A stretch of 44,583 nucleotides of DNA, from sequence record NC_073079.1; one strand, 5' to 3'. A model generated the notes under the pieces. It was not told the origin of the DNA, ran no database searches, and saw only the letters and a program-made list of their open reading frames with translations. A program made the translations under genes and the position numbers. Positions 3,544-24,206 of this stretch are shown here, one piece after another (positions within the stretch are counted from its first letter, which is position 1; each line of letters opens with the position of its first letter). Source of the DNA: Escherichia phage vB_EcoD_Over9000.

Positions 3544-4630
3544 TCAATATATGGCGGATCGCATGATCCGCCGTCACATCTTCACCCAGCGCCTGAGCAA
3601 TGACCAGGCGCGGAGGGTGCTGGCTATGTGGGAGAAGTTCCGGCCCACGTTACTGGGTAAGCTGACCGAGTTACTTGATGGCAAAAAGTCCATGAATAAC
3701 AAAGCACTTACCACACTGTTAACGCAACTCGACAAGACCGTCAAAACGGAACTGCGCACCGAGTTTAAGGCGTTGGCTGAAAGCCTTCAGGAGTTCGCCG
3801 ACACCGAGGCTGATTATCTCGCCGACACATTAACGGCAGCGATCCAGCCGGTGGTCGCCGTACCTGCGGTCGAGGTGGTTGGTGTAGTGACCGGTGCGCA
3901 GATCGCAGCGACGGCTATGAAAAACCCGTTCCAGGGTAATACTATGATGCAATGGCCTGACTCACTTTCTGAGTGGACCAGGACGCAGATCGGTAACCAG
4001 GTGCGAGCGGGATTCATCCAGGGCAAGCCAACGATGGAAATTATCGCGGACGTGAGGCGCGCGCTAGGCGGTCGTAGTGCGCAAGCTATCTCGAGCGTTG
4101 TTAAGTCCGCAGTCAACCACTATGCGGCGACAGCCCGCGAATTAATGGTAAAAGCTAATGACGATATTCTCGAAGGTCGCCAATGGTTATCTACATTGGA
4201 CACGCATACTTCTCCCATGTGCCAGCTACGCGATCGCCTGTTTTATCCGGTTGATGTTACTCCCGACACCAAAGGAAAGCGCGGCGGGAAAGTGGTGGCT
4301 GGGTCACAATATGGCGCTGGTCCGGGCAAGCTGCATTATTGCTGCCGGTCGACGGAGACGTGGAAAGTTAAGGGCATGGAAGATTGGCCCAGTGGTAAGC
4401 GTCCGGCACTGAAGGCTGACGCGGGTAGATTGCTGAGTGAGCAGGTAGACGCGCAGACTGATTTCTTCTCATGGGTGCAGCGCCAGCCGCGCCATATCCT
4501 GGAAGAACTATACGGAGTGCAACGCGCCGACCAGATTATGCGCGGCGTGAAAGTGCCGAAGATGTTCACCGATTCAGGTGAACTGATGACTATCGCACAG
4601 CTTAAAAACCGGGGGTTATGGCGTGATTAA
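3527..4630 (+). CDS. head morphogenesis protein (SPP1 gp7 / Mu F-like)
   Basis: 367 aa ORF overlapping the portal 3' end; conserved position after portal. Confidence 0.55.
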   Translation: MARTINQYMADRMIRRHIFTQRLSNDQARRVLAMWEKFRPTLLGKLTELLDGKKSMNNKALTTLLTQLDKTVKTELRTEFKALAESLQEFADTEADYLADTLTAAIQPVVAVPAVEVVGVVTGAQIAATAMKNPFQGNTMMQWPDSLSEWTRTQIGNQVRAGFIQGKPTMEIIADVRRALGGRSAQAISSVVKSAVNHYAATARELMVKANDDILEGRQWLSTLDTHTSPMCQLRDRLFYPVDVTPDTKGKRGGKVVAGSQYGAGPGKLHYCCRSTETWKVKGMEDWPSGKRPALKADAGRLLSEQVDAQTDFFSWVQRQPRHILEELYGVQRADQIMRGVKVPKMFTDSGELMTIAQLKNRGLWRD

Positions 4631-4952
4631 ATATGCATCGATTGGACTGGTTATCGGTCTGGCGGTAGGATTCTGGCTAGGTGACTCCTATCGCGCTGGC
4701 GTAGTGGCGGAGGCGGCGCAAGAAGCGCAAGCCAAAGCCCAACGGCAGCAAACTAAAGTTGTGGAGCGCTCCGTGCAGGCCGAACAGGCCCGCGACGTGG
4801 AATACCGGACTATCACGAAAGAGGTTGTTAAATATGTTACGCGCCCTAACCGCCCTGATTGTAGTTTTGATGCTGAGCGCGTGCGGATCAAGCAACGCGC
4901 CGTTGATGCCGCTAACGGAGTCGGCACTGCGACCGCCGTGCAAGTTCGATAG
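4623..4952 (+). CDS. i-spanin (Rz-like, type II inner-membrane protein)
   Basis: 109 aa; N-terminal transmembrane helix IGLVIGLAVGFWL followed by Ala/Gln/Glu-rich coiled-coil region; overlapped out of frame by a lipoprotein ORF. Confidence 0.6.
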   Translation: MIKYASIGLVIGLAVGFWLGDSYRAGVVAEAAQEAQAKAQRQQTKVVERSVQAEQARDVEYRTITKEVVKYVTRPNRPDCSFDAERVRIKQRAVDAANGVGTATAVQVR

Positions 4953-5064
4953 CCCGTCCGCAGACCCCGACGAGGATTTGATGATTGACGTGAAAAATAT
5001 GGAATGCGGGGCGAAGCTAAGGGCGCAGGTGCTGGAGTTGCAGCAAATAATTAAGGGGCCGTAA
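4834..5064 (+). CDS. o-spanin (Rz1-like outer-membrane lipoprotein)
   Basis: Starts inside the Rz ORF in another frame at ATG 4834 (RBS GAGG at 4821); signal peptide with lipobox LSAC; Pro-rich mature part; about 76 aa. Confidence 0.6.
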   Translation: MLRALTALIVVLMLSACGSSNAPLMPLTESALRPPCKFDSPSADPDEDLMIDVKNMECGAKLRAQVLELQQIIKGP

Positions 5065-17011: not shown

Positions 17012-17619
17012 CCACATTTAAATTGTACGGCGTCTTAGGACGTCGTTTTGGTAAAGTGCATAAGCTGGACTGCTTCACACCGGGCGAGGGTATCACCGGC
17101 CTGTGCGTGAAGTTACCCGGCTTACAGGACTTTCTAATGTCGGCCCACCTGGACAACATGATGTTCAAAGTGCGCAAGGGCGACCACACGATGACCGGCT
17201 ATGATGAGCTGGGTGAGTTCCACGGCAACCGCGTCGTCACCATCGCGCCGGTTATGACTGGCGCAAAAAGAGGGTTGGGACAATTGCTGGCGGGTGTCGC
17301 GATCGTAGTGGCGTCGTTCTATACGGGCGGACTTGCTACTGCTGCTTTCGGGGCTTCGGCTGCAACCGCTGCCGCTATCGGGACGGCGACGTTTTCGTTC
17401 GGGATGTCGATGGCGCTGGGTGGCGTTATGCAATTGCTATCTCCGCAACCGAAAGGATTGCAGACACGGCAGGATGTGGATAACAAGGCGTCGTATGCGT
17501 TCGGCGGCCCAGTAAACACTACCGCGCAAGGCACGGCTCTTGGTGTATTATGGGGCGAGCGTGAGATCGGCGGCGCTATTATTTCAGCCGGAATCGTAAC
17601 CGAGGACTTGAACGAATGA
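17002..17619 (+). CDS. tail assembly protein (I-like)
   Basis: 205 aa; overlaps the K-like gene; Gly/Ala-rich hydrophobic C-terminal half; position before the J-like gene. Confidence 0.65.
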   Translation: MAMTTFKLYGVLGRRFGKVHKLDCFTPGEGITGLCVKLPGLQDFLMSAHLDNMMFKVRKGDHTMTGYDELGEFHGNRVVTIAPVMTGAKRGLGQLLAGVAIVVASFYTGGLATAAFGASAATAAAIGTATFSFGMSMALGGVMQLLSPQPKGLQTRQDVDNKASYAFGGPVNTTAQGTALGVLWGEREIGGAIISAGIVTEDLNE

Positions 17620-20600
17620 CGATTATCTACGACGTCACAGGGCATAAAGGCGGCGGCGGCAAACAGCACACCCCACAGGAGACGCCAGATAGCCTGCATT
17701 CGCTGGCTAAAATCCGCATCTTGCTTGCGCTGGGGGAAGGGGAATTCGAAAGTATTACCAGCGCCAGCGAATTGCGGCAGCGTGTTTACCTGGATGGAAC
17801 GCCGATCCAGAACGCTGACTTGTCCGAAAACTTCCCTGGCGCGCGTGTGGAGTTCCGCCCCGGCACACAGCACCAGGATGTGATCCACGGATTTTCAGCG
17901 GTGGAAAGTGAGCAATCTGTCGGCGTAAAACTGGAAAACGGTACGCCGTGGGTACGCCAGATTAACGATACCAGTCTGGACGCCGTTCGCATTCGCATCG
18001 GAATTCCGGCCCTGTACACTAACGAAGATAATGGCGACCTGGTTGGCGGACGCATTGACTATAAGATCGTTGTGTATACGGATAACGCCGACCCGCGTGA
18101 GTTCAGATTCGCCGCCGTTGGTAAAACAATGTCGCTGTATGAGCGCGACCACCGCATCGAATTACCGCCGAACGTGAATACCGGCTGGCGCGTGGAGGTG
18201 CACCGCATAACGGCAGACTCCACATCGGCGAAAGTGGTTAATGATATCCGGGTGCAGTCCATCACTGAGATTATTGACGCCCGCCTGCGTTACCCGCTAA
18301 CCGCGCTGTTGTTTGTGGAGTTCGACGCCAAAGCGTTCCAGAACATCCCGCGCGTGTCCATCAAGTGCAAAGGTCGCAAAGTTCTAATACCGAACAACTA
18401 CGACCCGATCAATCATACCTATTCCGGGGACTGGGACGGCACGTTTAAACGCGCATGGACGGATAACCCTGCGTGGCACTGGTACGATATTTGTATTACT
18501 GAGCGCTTCGGCCTCGGTCGGCGTATCAAACCGCAAATGCTAAACCGATACGCGCTCTACCAGATTGCGCAGCGCTGCGATCAGTTGGTCAGCGACGGCA
18601 ACGGTGGTCGAGAAATCCGCTTTAAGAATGATATGTACATTCAGTCACAGACGGATGCCTGGACCGTGCTTAAGGATTTAGCCGCCATCTTCGCCGGAAT
18701 GACCTGGTGGGGCAACCAGATGTTTAATATCGTCAGTGACCAACCGGTCGCAGCAGTGTCGCACACTATCACCAACGCCTCGGTAATTGATGGGCGATTC
18801 GACTACGCATCTGGTAGCCAGAAAACGCGCTATTCCACATTCGCGGTAGCATACGGCAATCCGAAAAACCACTATGAAGATGCTATCGCAACGGGGCAAC
18901 GTGTCGAACTGGTACGCCGCCATAAGATTAACCGTCTTGATATTACGGCGATCGGCTGTACGCGCGAGTCAGAAGCGCAACGCCGGGGGCACTGGGCGCT
19001 AATCTCAAACCAGCTTGACCAGCAAGTTAGTTTTAAGGTGGGCATGGAGGGGTTATTCTTTATTCCTGGTAGCGTAGTCGCGATCGCGGACACAAACATT
19101 TCTGGCGGATTCGAGACTCGTGGCGGTCGCCTGTTGTCAGATCCGGGCACGCGTACCGTGCTGAACACGGACAGCGAAATCACGTTCCGTCCTGGCGATA
19201 AGTTCCTGGTTCGCACCGATAGCGGTAATGTGGAGACTCGCGAGATCGCCAGCGTCAACGGCAACAAGGTTACGCTAAAAACCGCACTTGACGCCGACCC
19301 GATTCCAGACCAGCCGTTTTGCGTTGATGGCGACGATATCCAGTTGCAAAAATTCCGCATCACCGACCTGGAATATGACGACTCTACTAGCACTTTCTCG
19401 GTGCGCGGGATTGAATACAACGATAGCAAATATGATGCCGTTGATAATGGCGCGCGCCTTGACCCAGGCATCTTTACGCAAGTGCCTGACGGGGTAATGA
19501 AGGGGCCGGAATCCGTGACCATCACCCCGTCGCAGATTTCATCGCAAGGGCAGCTAATCACCAACGTGGATATTGTATTCCCTCCGGTGAAGGATGCCGT
19601 GGTGTATGAAATCCAGTGGAGGCGTACCAGCCTTCAGAATATGGAAATCCAGTGGGGTAACGACTGGGTGAATATCCCACGCACGGCGTCGAATGGGGCG
19701 CACATCCCTAACGTGTTCTCCGGTAACTACCAGGCACGCGTCCGCGCGATCGGTATGGGCGAGATTTCATCTCCGTGGGTGTCGTCCGCCATCACGCCGG
19801 TGGAAGGTCGTCTCGGTGGGCTTAACGCACCAATCATCACCAACGCTATTTCGGGCCTTCACCAGATCTTGTGGAAGTGGAACCACAACAACGCCGCTAC
19901 TGATATCTCGTACACCGAGCTTGAAGTGCGCAAGACCGGTGAGACTGAATGGAAATTCCTTACCAACGTCCCATATCCGGGGGCGGAGTATGCGCAAACG
20001 TCGCTGGAGTTCGGCATATACCAGCAGTTGCGCGCCCGTGTAGCGGATAAAATCGGCAACCTGTCGGACTGGTCCGCCCCGTTTGAAGGCCAGGTGAGTG
20101 ACAAAGTTGACGAGTATATGAAGGGGCTTGATGACGAGTTCTTGACTTCCGAGGATGGTAAACGCTTCCAGGAAGCAATCAACACGATCCCGCAAGGCAT
20201 TTATGAGTCAATGCTCACCGACGCCCAGCAGCTATTCAACGCCCGCGCCGAGTACAAAGGGATTTATGCGGAAATCAAGGTAGCGTATAACGTGGCGGCG
20301 GATGCCCACCAGGCGGTGGCGCAACTGGAAACGTTGATCGGCACTCGTCTTGACGATGCTGAAGCGGCAATCCATACGTTGCAGACAGCGCAGAGTACGC
20401 AGGAACAAGCGTTCGCCCAGTACCAGCAAACTGTCGCCGCTAAGTTTTCGGAACAGGAAGCCGCCATCCAGTCAGTGCAAACGGCAACGGCTGACGTAGC
20501 TGGCGCGCTGGCGGAGTACAAGACCCAGGTCGCGGCACAGTTCGGGCAGCAGTCCGCCGCAATCGAGCAGAAGATGACGTCCACGTTTAACCACTCCGGT

Positions 20601-21035
20601 GGTAGCGCCACATACAGCCTTAAAGCTGGCGTGACGTATAACGGGACTTACTACGACGCCGGTATGCAGCTTTCCGTTGTGACGTCTGGCAGCGCGGTTA
20701 AATCCCGCATCGCGTTCAAGGCGGACCAGTTCTACATCATGCATCCGTCCAATGGGACGCTGTCGTCTGCGTTTATTGTGGACGGTGGCGCGGTGTATAT
20801 CGACACGGCACGCATCAAGAACGCGTCCATCAACTTCGCGCAGATCACAGACACGCTGCAATCGAATAACTACGACGGCAGCACGCGCGGATGGCGCTTA
20901 GGGAAAGATGGAACGTTTATCAACCTGGGCACCGGTAGCGGCGGCGGGATGAAACAGACGAACACAAGAATCAGCGTGAAGGACGGAAACGGCGTTCTCC
21001 GCGTGCAGATTGGTGAGCTTACTGGTAGCTGGTAG
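17616..21035 (+). CDS. tail tip / host specificity protein (J-like)
   Basis: 1139 aa; the largest tail gene, following M-L-K-I; followed by terminator 21038-21060. Confidence 0.85.
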   Translation: MTIIYDVTGHKGGGGKQHTPQETPDSLHSLAKIRILLALGEGEFESITSASELRQRVYLDGTPIQNADLSENFPGARVEFRPGTQHQDVIHGFSAVESEQSVGVKLENGTPWVRQINDTSLDAVRIRIGIPALYTNEDNGDLVGGRIDYKIVVYTDNADPREFRFAAVGKTMSLYERDHRIELPPNVNTGWRVEVHRITADSTSAKVVNDIRVQSITEIIDARLRYPLTALLFVEFDAKAFQNIPRVSIKCKGRKVLIPNNYDPINHTYSGDWDGTFKRAWTDNPAWHWYDICITERFGLGRRIKPQMLNRYALYQIAQRCDQLVSDGNGGREIRFKNDMYIQSQTDAWTVLKDLAAIFAGMTWWGNQMFNIVSDQPVAAVSHTITNASVIDGRFDYASGSQKTRYSTFAVAYGNPKNHYEDAIATGQRVELVRRHKINRLDITAIGCTRESEAQRRGHWALISNQLDQQVSFKVGMEGLFFIPGSVVAIADTNISGGFETRGGRLLSDPGTRTVLNTDSEITFRPGDKFLVRTDSGNVETREIASVNGNKVTLKTALDADPIPDQPFCVDGDDIQLQKFRITDLEYDDSTSTFSVRGIEYNDSKYDAVDNGARLDPGIFTQVPDGVMKGPESVTITPSQISSQGQLITNVDIVFPPVKDAVVYEIQWRRTSLQNMEIQWGNDWVNIPRTASNGAHIPNVFSGNYQARVRAIGMGEISSPWVSSAITPVEGRLGGLNAPIITNAISGLHQILWKWNHNNAATDISYTELEVRKTGETEWKFLTNVPYPGAEYAQTSLEFGIYQQLRARVADKIGNLSDWSAPFEGQVSDKVDEYMKGLDDEFLTSEDGKRFQEAINTIPQGIYESMLTDAQQLFNARAEYKGIYAEIKVAYNVAADAHQAVAQLETLIGTRLDDAEAAIHTLQTAQSTQEQAFAQYQQTVAAKFSEQEAAIQSVQTATADVAGALAEYKTQVAAQFGQQSAAIEQKMTSTFNHSGGSATYSLKAGVTYNGTYYDAGMQLSVVTSGSAVKSRIAFKADQFYIMHPSNGTLSSAFIVDGGAVYIDTARIKNASINFAQITDTLQSNNYDGSTRGWRLGKDGTFINLGTGSGGGMKQTNTRISVKDGNGVLRVQIGELTGSW

Positions 21036-21037
21036 TA

Positions 21038-21060
21038 TAGGGGCTTCGGCCCCTTTTTAA
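21038..21060 (+). terminator. intrinsic terminator after J-like gene
   Basis: GGGGC-TTCG-GCCCC hairpin (UUCG tetraloop) followed by TTTTT. Confidence 0.75.
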
Positions 21061-21071
21061 CGAGGTTATTT

Positions 21072-21374
21072 ATGGCATTCGGTATCGCAACGTGGGACGC
21101 GCAAGGACGCCCAAACAACTACGGCATTAAACCGGTAAGCGTGATCGGAAGGATTCATCTTGCGGAAGGACAAAAATCAGGCGCATGGTCATTCCCTGTA
21201 CCGGCGGGGATGAAGGTCGGATACGTGGTCGCACTGGATAAAGGCGCGGTCGGGCCAGGCCGCAGAATAACCGCCAGCGGGAACACTATCACGGTTTCCG
21301 CGGCAAGTGCGGTAGGTGGCGGGGTTTACTCCGCATCTGAATGTGACGTTATTGTTTTTGTGGAGCGAGCATAA
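21072..21374 (+). CDS. hypothetical protein (tail-associated?)
   Basis: 100 aa Gly/Ala/Val-rich ORF after the J-like gene. Confidence 0.45.
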   Translation: MAFGIATWDAQGRPNNYGIKPVSVIGRIHLAEGQKSGAWSFPVPAGMKVGYVVALDKGAVGPGRRITASGNTITVSAASAVGGGVYSASECDVIVFVERA

Positions 21375-22048
21375 TGGCTAATTACGGCGCGTTGATTGAC
21401 TTACCAAACGGCAACCCGTTTATCACGCCAGAATCGACGCCGTTTTGTCTATTCCGCCGTGTGGTTGTTGGGTCTTCGGCTAACGGCACTGCGCAGTCGG
21501 CGGCTGCCGATATTAATTTGGGCGGTGACTACCCCGCAATAGCGTTTGTGAAAACTACGCACACCGCCCAGCCGACCGTCGTAGGGTCTTCTCGCGTTGG
21601 TAATGTGGTGAAGGTGAGCGCCAGCAATCCATTCGGGCGGGGCTTCACGATGACGGCTTACATCTTTGCTATATTCCCACAGTCCCTTCCGCGGTGGGGC
21701 TTCGCTATTTGGGATAAGACGGGGAAGCTAGTGCTTACTAATGAGAGTCGCGTACTAAGTGATTTAGTTACCGTCGGATCGCCAGGCGCTAACGGGGGGA
21801 TTAACATTGACCAGACGCTAAACGGCAGCTACGCCGTCGCTCCGGGCATATTGGGGTCTACGCTGATCCGGTTTTTTGTGCAGGGCCAGCCGCAAGTAAT
21901 ATCGGTAACGGCGTACACGGGGGCCAGATTTGATGGGTCGCGAACGCGTATATCGGCAGCGTCGGCGGGGAACGCCACGGGGAGTGTGGTGGGGTATACT
22001 AACAACGGCAACGCGATTATGGCGATTAACACCGCCAATTATGATTGA
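21374..22048 (+). CDS. hypothetical protein (tail-associated?)
   Basis: 224 aa Gly/Ser/Thr/Ala-rich ORF, start overlapping upstream stop; ends at a bidirectional terminator. Confidence 0.45.
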   Translation: MANYGALIDLPNGNPFITPESTPFCLFRRVVVGSSANGTAQSAAADINLGGDYPAIAFVKTTHTAQPTVVGSSRVGNVVKVSASNPFGRGFTMTAYIFAIFPQSLPRWGFAIWDKTGKLVLTNESRVLSDLVTVGSPGANGGINIDQTLNGSYAVAPGILGSTLIRFFVQGQPQVISVTAYTGARFDGSRTRISAASAGNATGSVVGYTNNGNAIMAINTANYD

Positions 22049-22049
22049 A

Positions 22050-22075
22050 GAAAGCCCCGAAAGGGGCTTATTTGC
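22050..22075. terminator. bidirectional intrinsic terminator
   Basis: AAGCCCC-GAAA-GGGGCTT hairpin between convergent + gene (ends 22048) and the reverse-strand lipoprotein gene (ends 22068); T-rich on both flanks. Confidence 0.65.
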
Positions 22076-22286
22076 AGGTTGTGCTTTTGAAGTGGTCGAC
22101 CGACACATACTGGAAGTTGAATGGGTATCCCGCCCGTAACATTTTATGACCGCTAACGTCTGCAACCCCAAACACAGGGACGGAATACTCCACGCCACTA
22201 TTCATGTATGTCGCGTCGCAGACTTTAGTCGGCATGTTGGCACAACCCGACAAAAGAACCCCACAAATCATAATTAAAGTTTTCAT
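22068..22286 (-). CDS. outer-membrane lipoprotein, Cor/Llp-like superinfection-exclusion candidate
   Basis: 72 aa from ATG 22286 (RBS AGGAGAT on reverse strand); signal peptide MKTLIMICGVLLSGC with lipobox LSGC; reverse-strand gene wedged between tail tip and tail fiber genes. Confidence 0.55.
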   Translation of the reverse strand: MKTLIMICGVLLSGCANMPTKVCDATYMNSGVEYSVPVFGVADVSGHKMLRAGYPFNFQYVSVDHFKSTTCK

Positions 22287-22366
22287 GGTATCATCTCCTG
22301 TATTTGGTCGAGTTTTAGTATCGCACCGCTCGACCAGGATTGCAACCAATTTAAGAGGATTCAGCT

Positions 22367-24175
22367 ATGGCAGCGGGTACACTATCCGTAACGAATAACA
22401 GCAAGGCGGTTGTCGGGGTCGGCACAACGTTTACGGCGTTTAAAGCGGGCGACTTCTTAACGCTGGTGGTGGGTCAAGTCCCCTACACCGTAGCGATCGC
22501 GTCCGTTGAAAGTGCAACCGCGCTAACGCTGGTGCTGCCGTTCGACGGCCCTACGGCAACCGGCCTAGCGTGGGATGGCGTTAAGCGCGACACCATGTCG
22601 CTGGCGACGATGGGCGTAACCGTCCAGGCACAGAAAGCGTTGCGCTTGATGATCGCAGATGAAAACAACTGGCGTGCAATCTTCGGCGACGCTGAAGAAA
22701 TCACAGTGACGTTACCTAACGGGCAGGTTATGCAGGGTATGTCATGGGGCTACCTGTCGTCTTTGCTGAAGGAAGTAGACCCCGTTGAGATGCGCAACCT
22801 TCAACAACAGGCCGAGACGGCGAAAAACCAAGCTGTTACCGCAAAAGGCCAGGCCGAATCCGCGCGCGACGCCGCTAATACTGCGAAGACCGGAGCAGAG
22901 AACGCTCGCAACCAGGCGCAAGGCTACCGTGATGAGGCGGAAGGTTTTAAAAACCAGATTAACCCTGCACTATTCGTGCAGAAGTCCCAAAACCTGAATG
23001 ACGTTGCCGATAAAGCTGAGGCGCGCGCTAACTTGCAAGTTTTATTTGCGTCAAACTCTAACCTGGGGGCTACCGACCTCAACACGCTCAACAGCACGAA
23101 GGAAGGGCGTTATTACCAGACCACATCGGTGAACGCTACACCAGAGCGTAACTACCCGTTTCAGGAAGCCGGTTGTCTTACCGTGTTTAAAACCGGCGGG
23201 GGTAGTGTGGAGGCTTGCATCCAGGAGTACACCACGTTTTCAAGCCTGCGTCGGTTCGTCCGTTCGCTCGCTGGGGCGGTGTGGACGGAGTGGAAGGAGA
23301 TCTACCTGCAAGGGTCGTCCCCAACATACGAAAATATCGACTCGACAGGACGAGTTAGATCTGAAAAGGCATATCCAGCGTTCGAGTGGGTGTCGACGAG
23401 AGTAGCCGACGATTTCATCGGTAAGCGAGTCAGCATTGAGAACGACACAGGCGTTAATATGTATATGTTCTTCATGCAGAAAGACACAACCGCAAACAGA
23501 CGTGTCGTAGCGTTCGCAAGGCCAAACTCTACTGTTTTCCACTTCGTAGGGTATAACGGCGGGCTACCTACAGACGGCAACAGCGCCCCGTCGAATAACG
23601 TTAACTTTAACACGCAACCGCAAGGCTGGCGTATGGTGTCCGGCGGCTGGCAAAATGCTCCGCTCGCGGGTAATAACTACGGGACTTTATTCACGCAGTG
23701 TGTGCAAGGTGTGTCGCAGGGGGATTCTAAAGACAGCGGCACTTCTGGCCTATGGTACTCACAGCGATATTTTAATACAGAATCGCGGGTGTTTATCCGA
23801 AATCAAACAAGCAACGCCGCCTGGGGCGGGTGGTATGAATTTACTAAAACGGCAGTCTCGGATGAACGCCTGAAGAATGTAAAAGGTAATTTGAATGTTG
23901 AAGGTGCGCTCGATAACATCAACCGCATGGAATTTAAAGTATTCTCGTTTAAGGATGAGAAGGCCGGTAAGGGGTATCGTCGCGGTGTTATCTCGCAGCA
24001 GATTCGCCAGATCGATAAAGAGTACACGAAGGAGATCGGCGGGTACTATCACCTCGACCAGACACCAATGCTACTGGACGCCCTAGCGGCAATTAAGGCG
24101 TTGCGTGCGCGTGACGAGGCTAATAAAGCAGAGATTGCAGAACTGAAGGCGGCTATTGCCGAATTGAAGAAATAA
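22367..24175 (+). CDS. tail fiber protein with C-terminal intramolecular chaperone (peptidase S74-like) domain
   Basis: 602 aa; RBS AAGAGGA; C-terminal SDERLKNVKG...coiled coil resembles the auto-cleaving chaperone domain of endosialidase / L-shaped tail fibers. Confidence 0.75.
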   Translation: MAAGTLSVTNNSKAVVGVGTTFTAFKAGDFLTLVVGQVPYTVAIASVESATALTLVLPFDGPTATGLAWDGVKRDTMSLATMGVTVQAQKALRLMIADENNWRAIFGDAEEITVTLPNGQVMQGMSWGYLSSLLKEVDPVEMRNLQQQAETAKNQAVTAKGQAESARDAANTAKTGAENARNQAQGYRDEAEGFKNQINPALFVQKSQNLNDVADKAEARANLQVLFASNSNLGATDLNTLNSTKEGRYYQTTSVNATPERNYPFQEAGCLTVFKTGGGSVEACIQEYTTFSSLRRFVRSLAGAVWTEWKEIYLQGSSPTYENIDSTGRVRSEKAYPAFEWVSTRVADDFIGKRVSIENDTGVNMYMFFMQKDTTANRRVVAFARPNSTVFHFVGYNGGLPTDGNSAPSNNVNFNTQPQGWRMVSGGWQNAPLAGNNYGTLFTQCVQGVSQGDSKDSGTSGLWYSQRYFNTESRVFIRNQTSNAAWGGWYEFTKTAVSDERLKNVKGNLNVEGALDNINRMEFKVFSFKDEKAGKGYRRGVISQQIRQIDKEYTKEIGGYYHLDQTPMLLDALAAIKALRARDEANKAEIAELKAAIAELKK

Positions 24176-24180
24176 ATAGA

Positions 24181-24206
24181 AGGGGCCGTATGGCCCCTTT
24201 TTTAGT
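24181..24206 (+). terminator. intrinsic terminator after tail fiber gene
   Basis: AGGGGCC-GTAT-GGCCCCT hairpin followed by TTTTTT; marks the end of the + strand structural block. Confidence 0.8.

Follow-up and report, generated by a model that had tools for sequence, protein, structure and literature searches.

The window, by which we mean the whole stretch of 44,583 nucleotides analyzed here (Escherichia phage vB_EcoD_Over9000, NC_073079.1), represents the complete 44.6-kb genome of a Dhillonvirus. Over most of the left 25 kb, it is 92-97% identical to SM_S24, Zumzum, JLBYU60 and others. The host-recognition locus starts with a gene coding for a J-like tail tip protein of 1139 aa (17616..21035, plus strand). 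It is followed on the same strand by two small genes of the FhuA-linked cassette, a gp22-like gene (21072..21374, 100 aa; PHROG 557, E = 1.1e-32) and a gp23-like gene (21374..22048, 224 aa; PHROG 425, E = 2.1e-69). The next gene, cor, lies on the minus strand (22068..22286), convergent with this pair and divergent from the plus-strand lateral tail fibre gene (22367..24175, 602 aa; PHROG 1980, E = 1.1e-125). The position between tail tip and tail fibre genes, which had been claimed earlier, was thus confirmed. The gene order in the window is J, gp22-like, gp23-like, cor, and homologous gp22/gp23 pairs occur in T1, N15 and HK75. Neither a signal peptide nor a hydrophobic segment was found in the gp22-like and gp23-like proteins (maximal 19-aa Kyte-Doolittle mean of 1.2). 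The C-terminus of the tail fibre carries a Pfam Peptidase_S74 intramolecular chaperone domain at residues 498-552. Only the N-terminal 150-220 aa of the fibre are common to most relatives, which indicates that its distal part has been swapped, in line with reports for the genus.

The cor open reading frame begins with an ATG at position 22286 and ends with a TAA stop codon at 22068-22070. It comprises 72 codons, translated as MKTLIMICGVLLSGCANMPTKVCDATYMNSGVEYSVPVFGVADVSGHKMLRAGYPFNFQYVSVDHFKSTTCK. The coordinates and length given in the earlier note were exact, and its description of a textbook lipoprotein signal also held. The predicted lipoprotein signal peptide of the 72-aa protein (MKTLIMICGVLLSGC) has the lipobox LSGC and alanine at position +2. 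Residues 1-14 (MKTLIMICGVLLSG) are coded by 22245..22286, the lipobox by 22242-22253, and the Cys15 codon, which is the predicted lipidation site, occupies 22242-22244. A check against the lipoprotein sequence rule revealed K2, a hydrophobic core TLIMICGVLL with a mean Kyte-Doolittle value of 2.8, and the L-S-G-C motif ending in Cys15. Processing at this site would leave a mature protein of 58 aa. According to the Lol sorting rules, alanine at +2 directs a lipoprotein to the outer membrane. A ribosome-binding site, AGGAG (22295-22299), is located 8 nt 5′ of the ATG on the minus strand, and 10 relatives have retained a purine-rich element there, in the form AGGAG, GGGGA or GAGGA.

A longer TTG-started reading frame (22068-22349, 93 aa) was considered and rejected. 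The homologues begin at the ATG, AGGAG precedes the ATG, and a 2-nt indel in Teewinot falls within the would-be extension. In the public Zumzum record, the CDS is extended 5′ of the conserved ATG in a comparable way. The public annotation of cor is inconsistent in other records too: in SM_S22, two small opposite-strand reading frames were called instead of cor, and in PaulFeyerabend, B2 and Opt212 the gene is labelled 'hypothetical'. When a PROSITE-like lipoprotein rule was applied to the window, 10 of the 1632 combinations of start and reading frame matched, corresponding to 6 distinct ORFs. A lipobox alone is therefore not rare in the window, and the reality of the cor gene has to be argued from homology and conservation. 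A true lipoprotein signal (MLRALTALIVVLMLSAC) was found in one more gene, at 4834-5064 on the plus strand. This gene overlaps the end of ORF 4623-4952, and its counterpart in JLBYU60 is annotated as a spanin.

Profile searches assigned the 72-aa protein to the Cor family. The NCBIfam equivalog NF047972, "phage exclusion lipoprotein Cor", matched residues 2-71 with a score of 60.1 bits (E = 1.5e-16), where the cut-off of the model is 31 bits. PHROG 1119, "Cor superinfection exclusion protein", covered residues 1-72 over profile positions 1-75 of 78 (E = 1.9e-27). A Pfam search with the protein returned nothing at E = 0.1 or better and PADLOC had no model matching it, which means that the family is covered by PHROGs and NCBIfam only. 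With tblastn, full-length matches were obtained in 241 phage records, mostly annotated as Cor or superinfection exclusion protein. The Over9000 protein is identical to Cor of Zumzum and 79-93% identical to that of other Dhillonviruses. End-to-end alignments were also obtained with Cor of T1 (49% identity, E = 7e-19), N15 (43%, E = 4e-14) and HK75 (44%, E = 5e-13), and HK75 and mEp-type lambdoid phages fall together at 40-44%. A word-indexed protein search with Cor retrieved 6 close relatives only, and an exhaustive search of cluster representatives gave 13 clusters at E <= 0.001, two of which, consisting of long, unrelated-looking proteins, were left out of the Cor set. By these searches, the Cor family is compact and phage-restricted. 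We consider it practically certain that the 72-aa protein belongs to this family and, judging from the full-length alignments, it is a true Cor orthologue, beyond a mere analogue. The earlier reading of the gene as a Cor/Llp-like exclusion lipoprotein is supported in this respect, since homology to Cor is evident from NF047972, PHROG 1119 and the end-to-end alignments. The identification itself is already known: an identical protein has been deposited and named Cor, curated family models exist, and the FhuA-linked cassette has been published for the genus too.

In an alignment of 21 Cor sequences, including those of T1, N15 and HK75, C23, C71, G53 and F66 were invariant, and A52, Y54, P55 and F56 were present in at least 90% of them, so that the core motif (R/K)AGYPF is nearly invariant. 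In Over9000 Cor this region reads RAGYPFNFQYV, and the conserved cysteines, Cys23 and Cys71, correspond to positions 9 and 57 of the mature protein. The lipobox Cys15 was conserved in every aligned full-length homologue. Among 10 Dhillonvirus alleles, the dN/dS ratio of cor was about 0.13, which shows that purifying selection acts on it.

Between the stop codons of the convergent gp23-like and cor genes there is a gap of 19 nt, filled by a GC-rich hairpin, AAGCCCC-GAAA-GGGGCTT (22052..22069), which overlaps the cor stop codon. Its folding energy was -15.6 kcal/mol on the plus strand (z = -2.95) and -12.4 kcal/mol on the minus strand (z = -2.48), in both cases relative to shuffled sequences. 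The hairpin is kept in 10 Dhillonvirus relatives, among which the loop flips by inversion, and in JLBYU37 and Teewinot a two-sided compensatory change to AATCCCC/GGGGATT was observed. The T-tracts are modest, with 5 of 8 positions being T on either strand when counted after five G-C pairs, and a consensus terminator scan of the window did not call the hairpin. In T1, the equivalent site is an annotated rho-independent terminator. Folding, conservation and the T1 counterpart make it probable that the hairpin acts as a two-way intrinsic terminator. The earlier description of cor as flanked by a bidirectional terminator needs to be narrowed accordingly: there is a single hairpin on the 3′ side, stable on both strands, and no terminator on the 5′ side.

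The 80-bp gap between cor and the tail fibre gene contains a candidate cor promoter of the extended -10 type (22317..22345, minus strand). It consists of TTGCAA (22340-22345), a 17-nt spacer and GATACT (22317-22322), with TGn in front of the -10 hexamer. Among 10 Dhillonvirus relatives, no variation was seen in the -35 hexamer or in the segments GGTG and ATACT. The candidate agrees with the consensus at 8 of 12 positions and, as the scan threshold was 9, it was not listed by the promoter scan. Another minus-strand promoter-like match (22294..22267) was rejected as the cor promoter, since it overlaps the start codon. On the far side of the tail fibre gene, a strong two-way terminator-like hairpin (24178-24201; 10 pairs, T-runs on both strands) divides this gene from a block of minus-strand genes starting at 24202. 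As an isolated gene on the minus strand, cor could be reached by transcripts of the early or middle genes only through this terminator, which argues for a promoter of its own for cor. Taken together with the conserved elements, it suggests that cor is probably transcribed from its own sigma-70-type promoter. A promoter of the host type would make expression possible right after DNA entry, as expected of an exclusion function.

Two other elements were noted in this region. A promoter-like site on the plus strand (22247-22274; CCGACA, 16-nt spacer, CATAAT) is embedded in the part of cor that codes for the signal peptide and is directed at the tail fibre gene. If real, it would drive tail-fibre transcription from a point 3′ of the hairpin at 22052-22069, in antisense orientation to the beginning of cor. 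The inverted repeat GGTCGAG-N16-CTCGACC at 22306-22335 overlaps the predicted cor -10 hexamer and lies in the tail-fibre leader. In most relatives it reads GGTTGAG/CTCAACC, one two-sided change, and the others have single mismatches. A search of the window for further copies of the repeat found none. It may be an operator, an RNA element or a functionless sequence.

The comparison of substitution rates revealed a marked difference between cor and its neighbours. Synonymous divergence was about 0.56 in cor and 0.04-0.055 in the gp22-like and gp23-like genes, which is approximately a ten-fold difference, and dN/dS was about 0.13 in all three genes alike. Measured in 100-nt steps against five relatives, nucleotide identity was 96-100% across 20900-22050 and 77-80% at 22100-22199, inside cor. 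The hairpin at 22052-22069 coincides with this sharp mosaic boundary. The pattern suggests that the two sides of the hairpin have recombined separately, the history of cor being the older one. Diversifying selection was rejected as the cause of the divergence, because dN/dS in cor is the same as in the neighbouring genes and it is dS that is high. It could be asked whether the cor alleles differ in function and are exchanged separately from the receptor-binding module, and we consider this unlikely. If it were true, the alleles might lock FhuA in different states and thereby exclude different sets of FhuA-dependent phages, or might spare ferrichrome uptake to differing degrees. The Cor allele would then, besides the receptor-binding protein, shape the competition of co-occurring phages.

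The receptor of Over9000 was approached through its nearest relatives. JLBYU60, JLBYU37, Envy and Teewinot have been reported to be FhuA-dependent, with loop L8 being essential (PMC10373560). The J protein of Over9000 is 98.7% identical to that of JLBYU60 and, over residues 486-1139, 98.6% identical to those of Envy and JLBYU37. The gp22-like protein is 99-100% identical to its counterparts in the FhuA-dependent Dhillonviruses, 73% to N15 gp22 and 54% to T1 orf32; for the gp23-like protein, the respective values are 98%, 63% (N15 gp23) and 53% (T1 orf31). Cor itself shares 82-87% identity with the JLBYU60, JLBYU37 and Envy alleles, and Teewinot has the same cassette with its own cor allele. 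The BASEL study reported that the locus just 3′ of gpJ in Drexlerviridae/Dhillonvirus varies with the terminal receptor and predicts it, and that cognate superinfection exclusion genes go with it (PMC8594841). In a 2026 analysis, the three-gene cor cassette was found, among the BASEL phages, only in FhuA users, Dhillonviruses included (PMC13164509). In that paper, the cassette observation is credited to Wietzorrek et al. 2006, for T1, HK022, N15, ES18 and phi80. The role of the gp22-like and gp23-like proteins is disputed, with receptor binding proposed in one study (PMC8594841) and an exclusion-related role in the other (PMC13164509); their KanT1 homologues gave no structural hits (PMC13164509). 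Given the near-identity of its recognition genes to those of FhuA-dependent phages, the terminal receptor of Over9000 is almost certainly FhuA. We infer FhuA as the target of Cor from the same near-identical relatives.

In order to compare Cor with proteins of known structure, an AlphaFold2 model was used, based on an alignment that left out the Cor proteins of T1, N15 and HK75. The mean pLDDT was 85, reaching about 95 over residues 21-70, and the model contains four beta strands. A Foldseek search against 350,542 PDB chains returned 8a60_B, which is Llp in the FhuA-Llp crystal structure, as the top match (TM 0.50/0.57, rmsd 2.7 Å over 51 columns, 27% identity, probability 1.00). The resemblance to Llp is modest: the E-value of this match was 0.046, above 0.001, and Tudor and chromo domains were nearly as good by this measure. 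The earlier note had proposed a sequence comparison with Cor and Llp. Full-length relationship to Cor emerged, at the identities given above for T1, N15 and HK75; for Llp, a phmmer search of the PDB with the single Cor sequence gave no significant pairwise match (8a60_B, E = 0.28, residues 4-40 only). With the Cor-family profile, the best sequence match in the PDB was again Llp (E = 0.0058), largely through the signal peptide and the first strands. Other Cor proteins have already led to the placement of Cor and Llp in one structural family (PMC13164509 and a 2026 preprint).

The mechanism proposed for Cor is modelled on T5 Llp. Both are small outer-membrane lipoproteins whose genes lie by receptor-recognition genes in FhuA-dependent virulent siphoviruses, and both have a pair of cysteines near the ends of the mature chain, at positions 11 and 58 in Llp and 9 and 57 in Over9000 Cor, which tie the termini together in Llp and probably do so in Cor. 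They differ in their neighbours, as llp adjoins the gene of the receptor-binding protein pb5 on its downstream side (PMC9586334) and cor adjoins the gp22-like and gp23-like genes, and an allosteric mechanism has been solved for Llp only. Llp, which carries a Cys11-Cys58 disulphide, docks onto FhuA at its periplasmic face and plug and makes the extracellular loops EL7 and EL8 fold inward, and its authors expect the same mode of action for Cor (PMC9586334). According to a 2026 preprint, the molecular mechanism of Cor is unelucidated. The spacing of Cys9 and Cys57 and the L8 dependence of the Dhillonviruses fit the Llp picture, and by analogy we somewhat favour an Llp-like periplasmic allosteric mechanism for Cor. 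On the model of Llp (PMC9586334), exclusion lipoproteins would act on the receptor allosterically from the periplasm, without covering it from the outside.

Based on these data, we propose the following course of events. After DNA entry, cor would be transcribed alone, likely from the conserved sigma-70-type promoter in the 80-bp gap, and its transcription would terminate at the hairpin that it has in common with the convergent late genes. The 72-aa precursor would be exported, lipidated at Cys15 and cleaved by signal peptidase II. The 58-aa mature domain is predicted to fold into a small beta-sheet structure, which a disulphide between Cys9 and Cys57 (mature numbering) probably holds together. 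Mature Cor, likely placed in the inner leaflet of the outer membrane, would then bind the periplasmic face and the plug of FhuA and lock the receptor in a state unusable by phage receptor-binding proteins. As a result, superinfection by Over9000 and other FhuA-dependent phages would be blocked, and the progeny would be spared from being wasted on FhuA in the debris of lysed cells. Functional inactivation of FhuA by Cor and the exclusion of FhuA-dependent phages have been reported for other Cor proteins (Uc-Mass 2004 and Hernandez-Sanchez 2008, as cited in the 2026 preprint; Arguijo-Hernandez 2018, as cited in PMC13164509). Earlier work, as cited in PMC13164509, describes interactions of Cor with other outer-membrane proteins too. 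In the literature, we found no experiments on any Dhillonvirus Cor, the Over9000 protein included. Judged from its sequence relationships, cor is very likely the gene of an FhuA-directed exclusion lipoprotein of a virulent Dhillonvirus.

Alternative explanations concern the benefit of the protein, its target and the reality of the gene. The same molecule could serve mainly for lytic conversion, keeping released progeny from irreversible adsorption to FhuA in debris, with the exclusion of competitors in the course of a short infection as a secondary effect. As small siphoviruses with a virulent lifestyle (PMC8594841), the Dhillonviruses have no lysogen to protect, and T5 Llp is itself named 'lytic conversion lipoprotein'. 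Lytic conversion is nevertheless compatible with superinfection exclusion, as one and the same inactivation of the receptor serves both, and the sequence does not separate the two benefits. We regard lytic conversion as the main benefit as a serious possibility, somewhat short of an even chance; a virulent phage probably gains in two ways, by excluding FhuA phages that arrive later and by shielding its progeny from debris. As to the target, a Cor-family lipoprotein might inactivate BtuB or another TonB-dependent transporter instead of FhuA. Cor-like proteins are also present in BtuB-using phages (PMC13164509), which means that the target is not fixed by family membership alone, and one Dhillonvirus has been reported to be BtuB-dependent (PMC10373560). 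The far greater divergence of cor than of the adjacent cassette (77-80% nucleotide identity, dS of about 0.56), with the separate history that it implies, would also agree with a different target. Against this stand the confinement of the full three-gene cassette in the BASEL set to FhuA users (PMC13164509) and the 98-100% identity of J and the gp22-like and gp23-like proteins to those of FhuA-dependent phages, whose Cor proteins are themselves 82-87% identical to that of Over9000. Another target is therefore highly improbable.

The reading frame could, in principle, be a chance frame, a decaying remnant or a lysis lipoprotein of the o-spanin type. A lipobox pattern present in 6 ORFs of the window and the GenBank records that miss cor or call it hypothetical would be in line with such an origin, but the curated Cor models match over the full length and intact copies of the gene are present in 241 phage records. 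The dN/dS of about 0.13 at a dS of about 0.56 and the conserved ribosome-binding site and upstream region likewise argue against a chance frame or a remnant, and the spanin-type lipoprotein of this genome is coded elsewhere (4834-5064). The probability of any of these three origins is negligible. FhuA-directed exclusion thus remains the preferred function of Over9000 cor.

The gene was further compared with other exclusion systems. The Cor protein of T1 (AAP49969.1; Tunavirus, Drexlerviridae), also a virulent FhuA user, has the same lipobox, two cysteines and AGYPF motif, and the T1 layout is alike, with J, two small genes and an inverted, convergent cor separated from them by a terminator hairpin. 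T1 differs in belonging to a different phage family and in what lies on the other side of cor, where a small hypothetical ORF and then recombination genes take the place of the tail fibre gene. The experimentally studied, FhuA-inactivating Cor proteins of N15, HK022/HK75, mEp167 and phi80 are 40-44% identical to Over9000 Cor over the full length, and it passes the NCBIfam model 'lamb_exclu_cor'. The temperate phages also have the upstream gp22/gp23 pair, at 70-73% and 55-63% identity, respectively. In these phages, as seen in N15 and HK75, cor runs in the direction of J, and it is expressed from the prophage as a lysogenic-conversion gene; the cor gene of the virulent Over9000 is inverted. In other Dhillonviruses (Zumzum, SSL-2009a, Envy, JLBYU37, JLBYU60, EC115 and others), the position, strand, upstream region and hairpin are the same; their protein is already named 'Cor superinfection exclusion protein' in GenBank, with no substantive difference from that of Over9000. 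A more distant parallel is Rtp45, the SE lipoprotein of the LptD-targeting small siphoviruses Rtp and Oekolampad (9RPS). It is likewise a small periplasm-facing lipoprotein, cognate to the receptor and coded in a swappable locus 3′ of J, but it targets LptDE and acts by steric displacement of loops. A comparison of the Cor-family profile with Rtp45 (9RPS chain D) gave E = 0.67, with the match limited to positions 2-27, which represent the signal peptide only.

The general principle of an exclusion lipoprotein paired with the receptor-recognition module is established already, and it has been structurally explained for Llp-FhuA and Rtp45-LptDE. The finding has little significance beyond the correct annotation of cor. 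For the phage itself, the presence of cor suggests that Over9000 probably uses FhuA. It also leads us to expect cross-exclusion with phages of the T1, T5 and phi80 types, a point of practical use in the design of phage cocktails.
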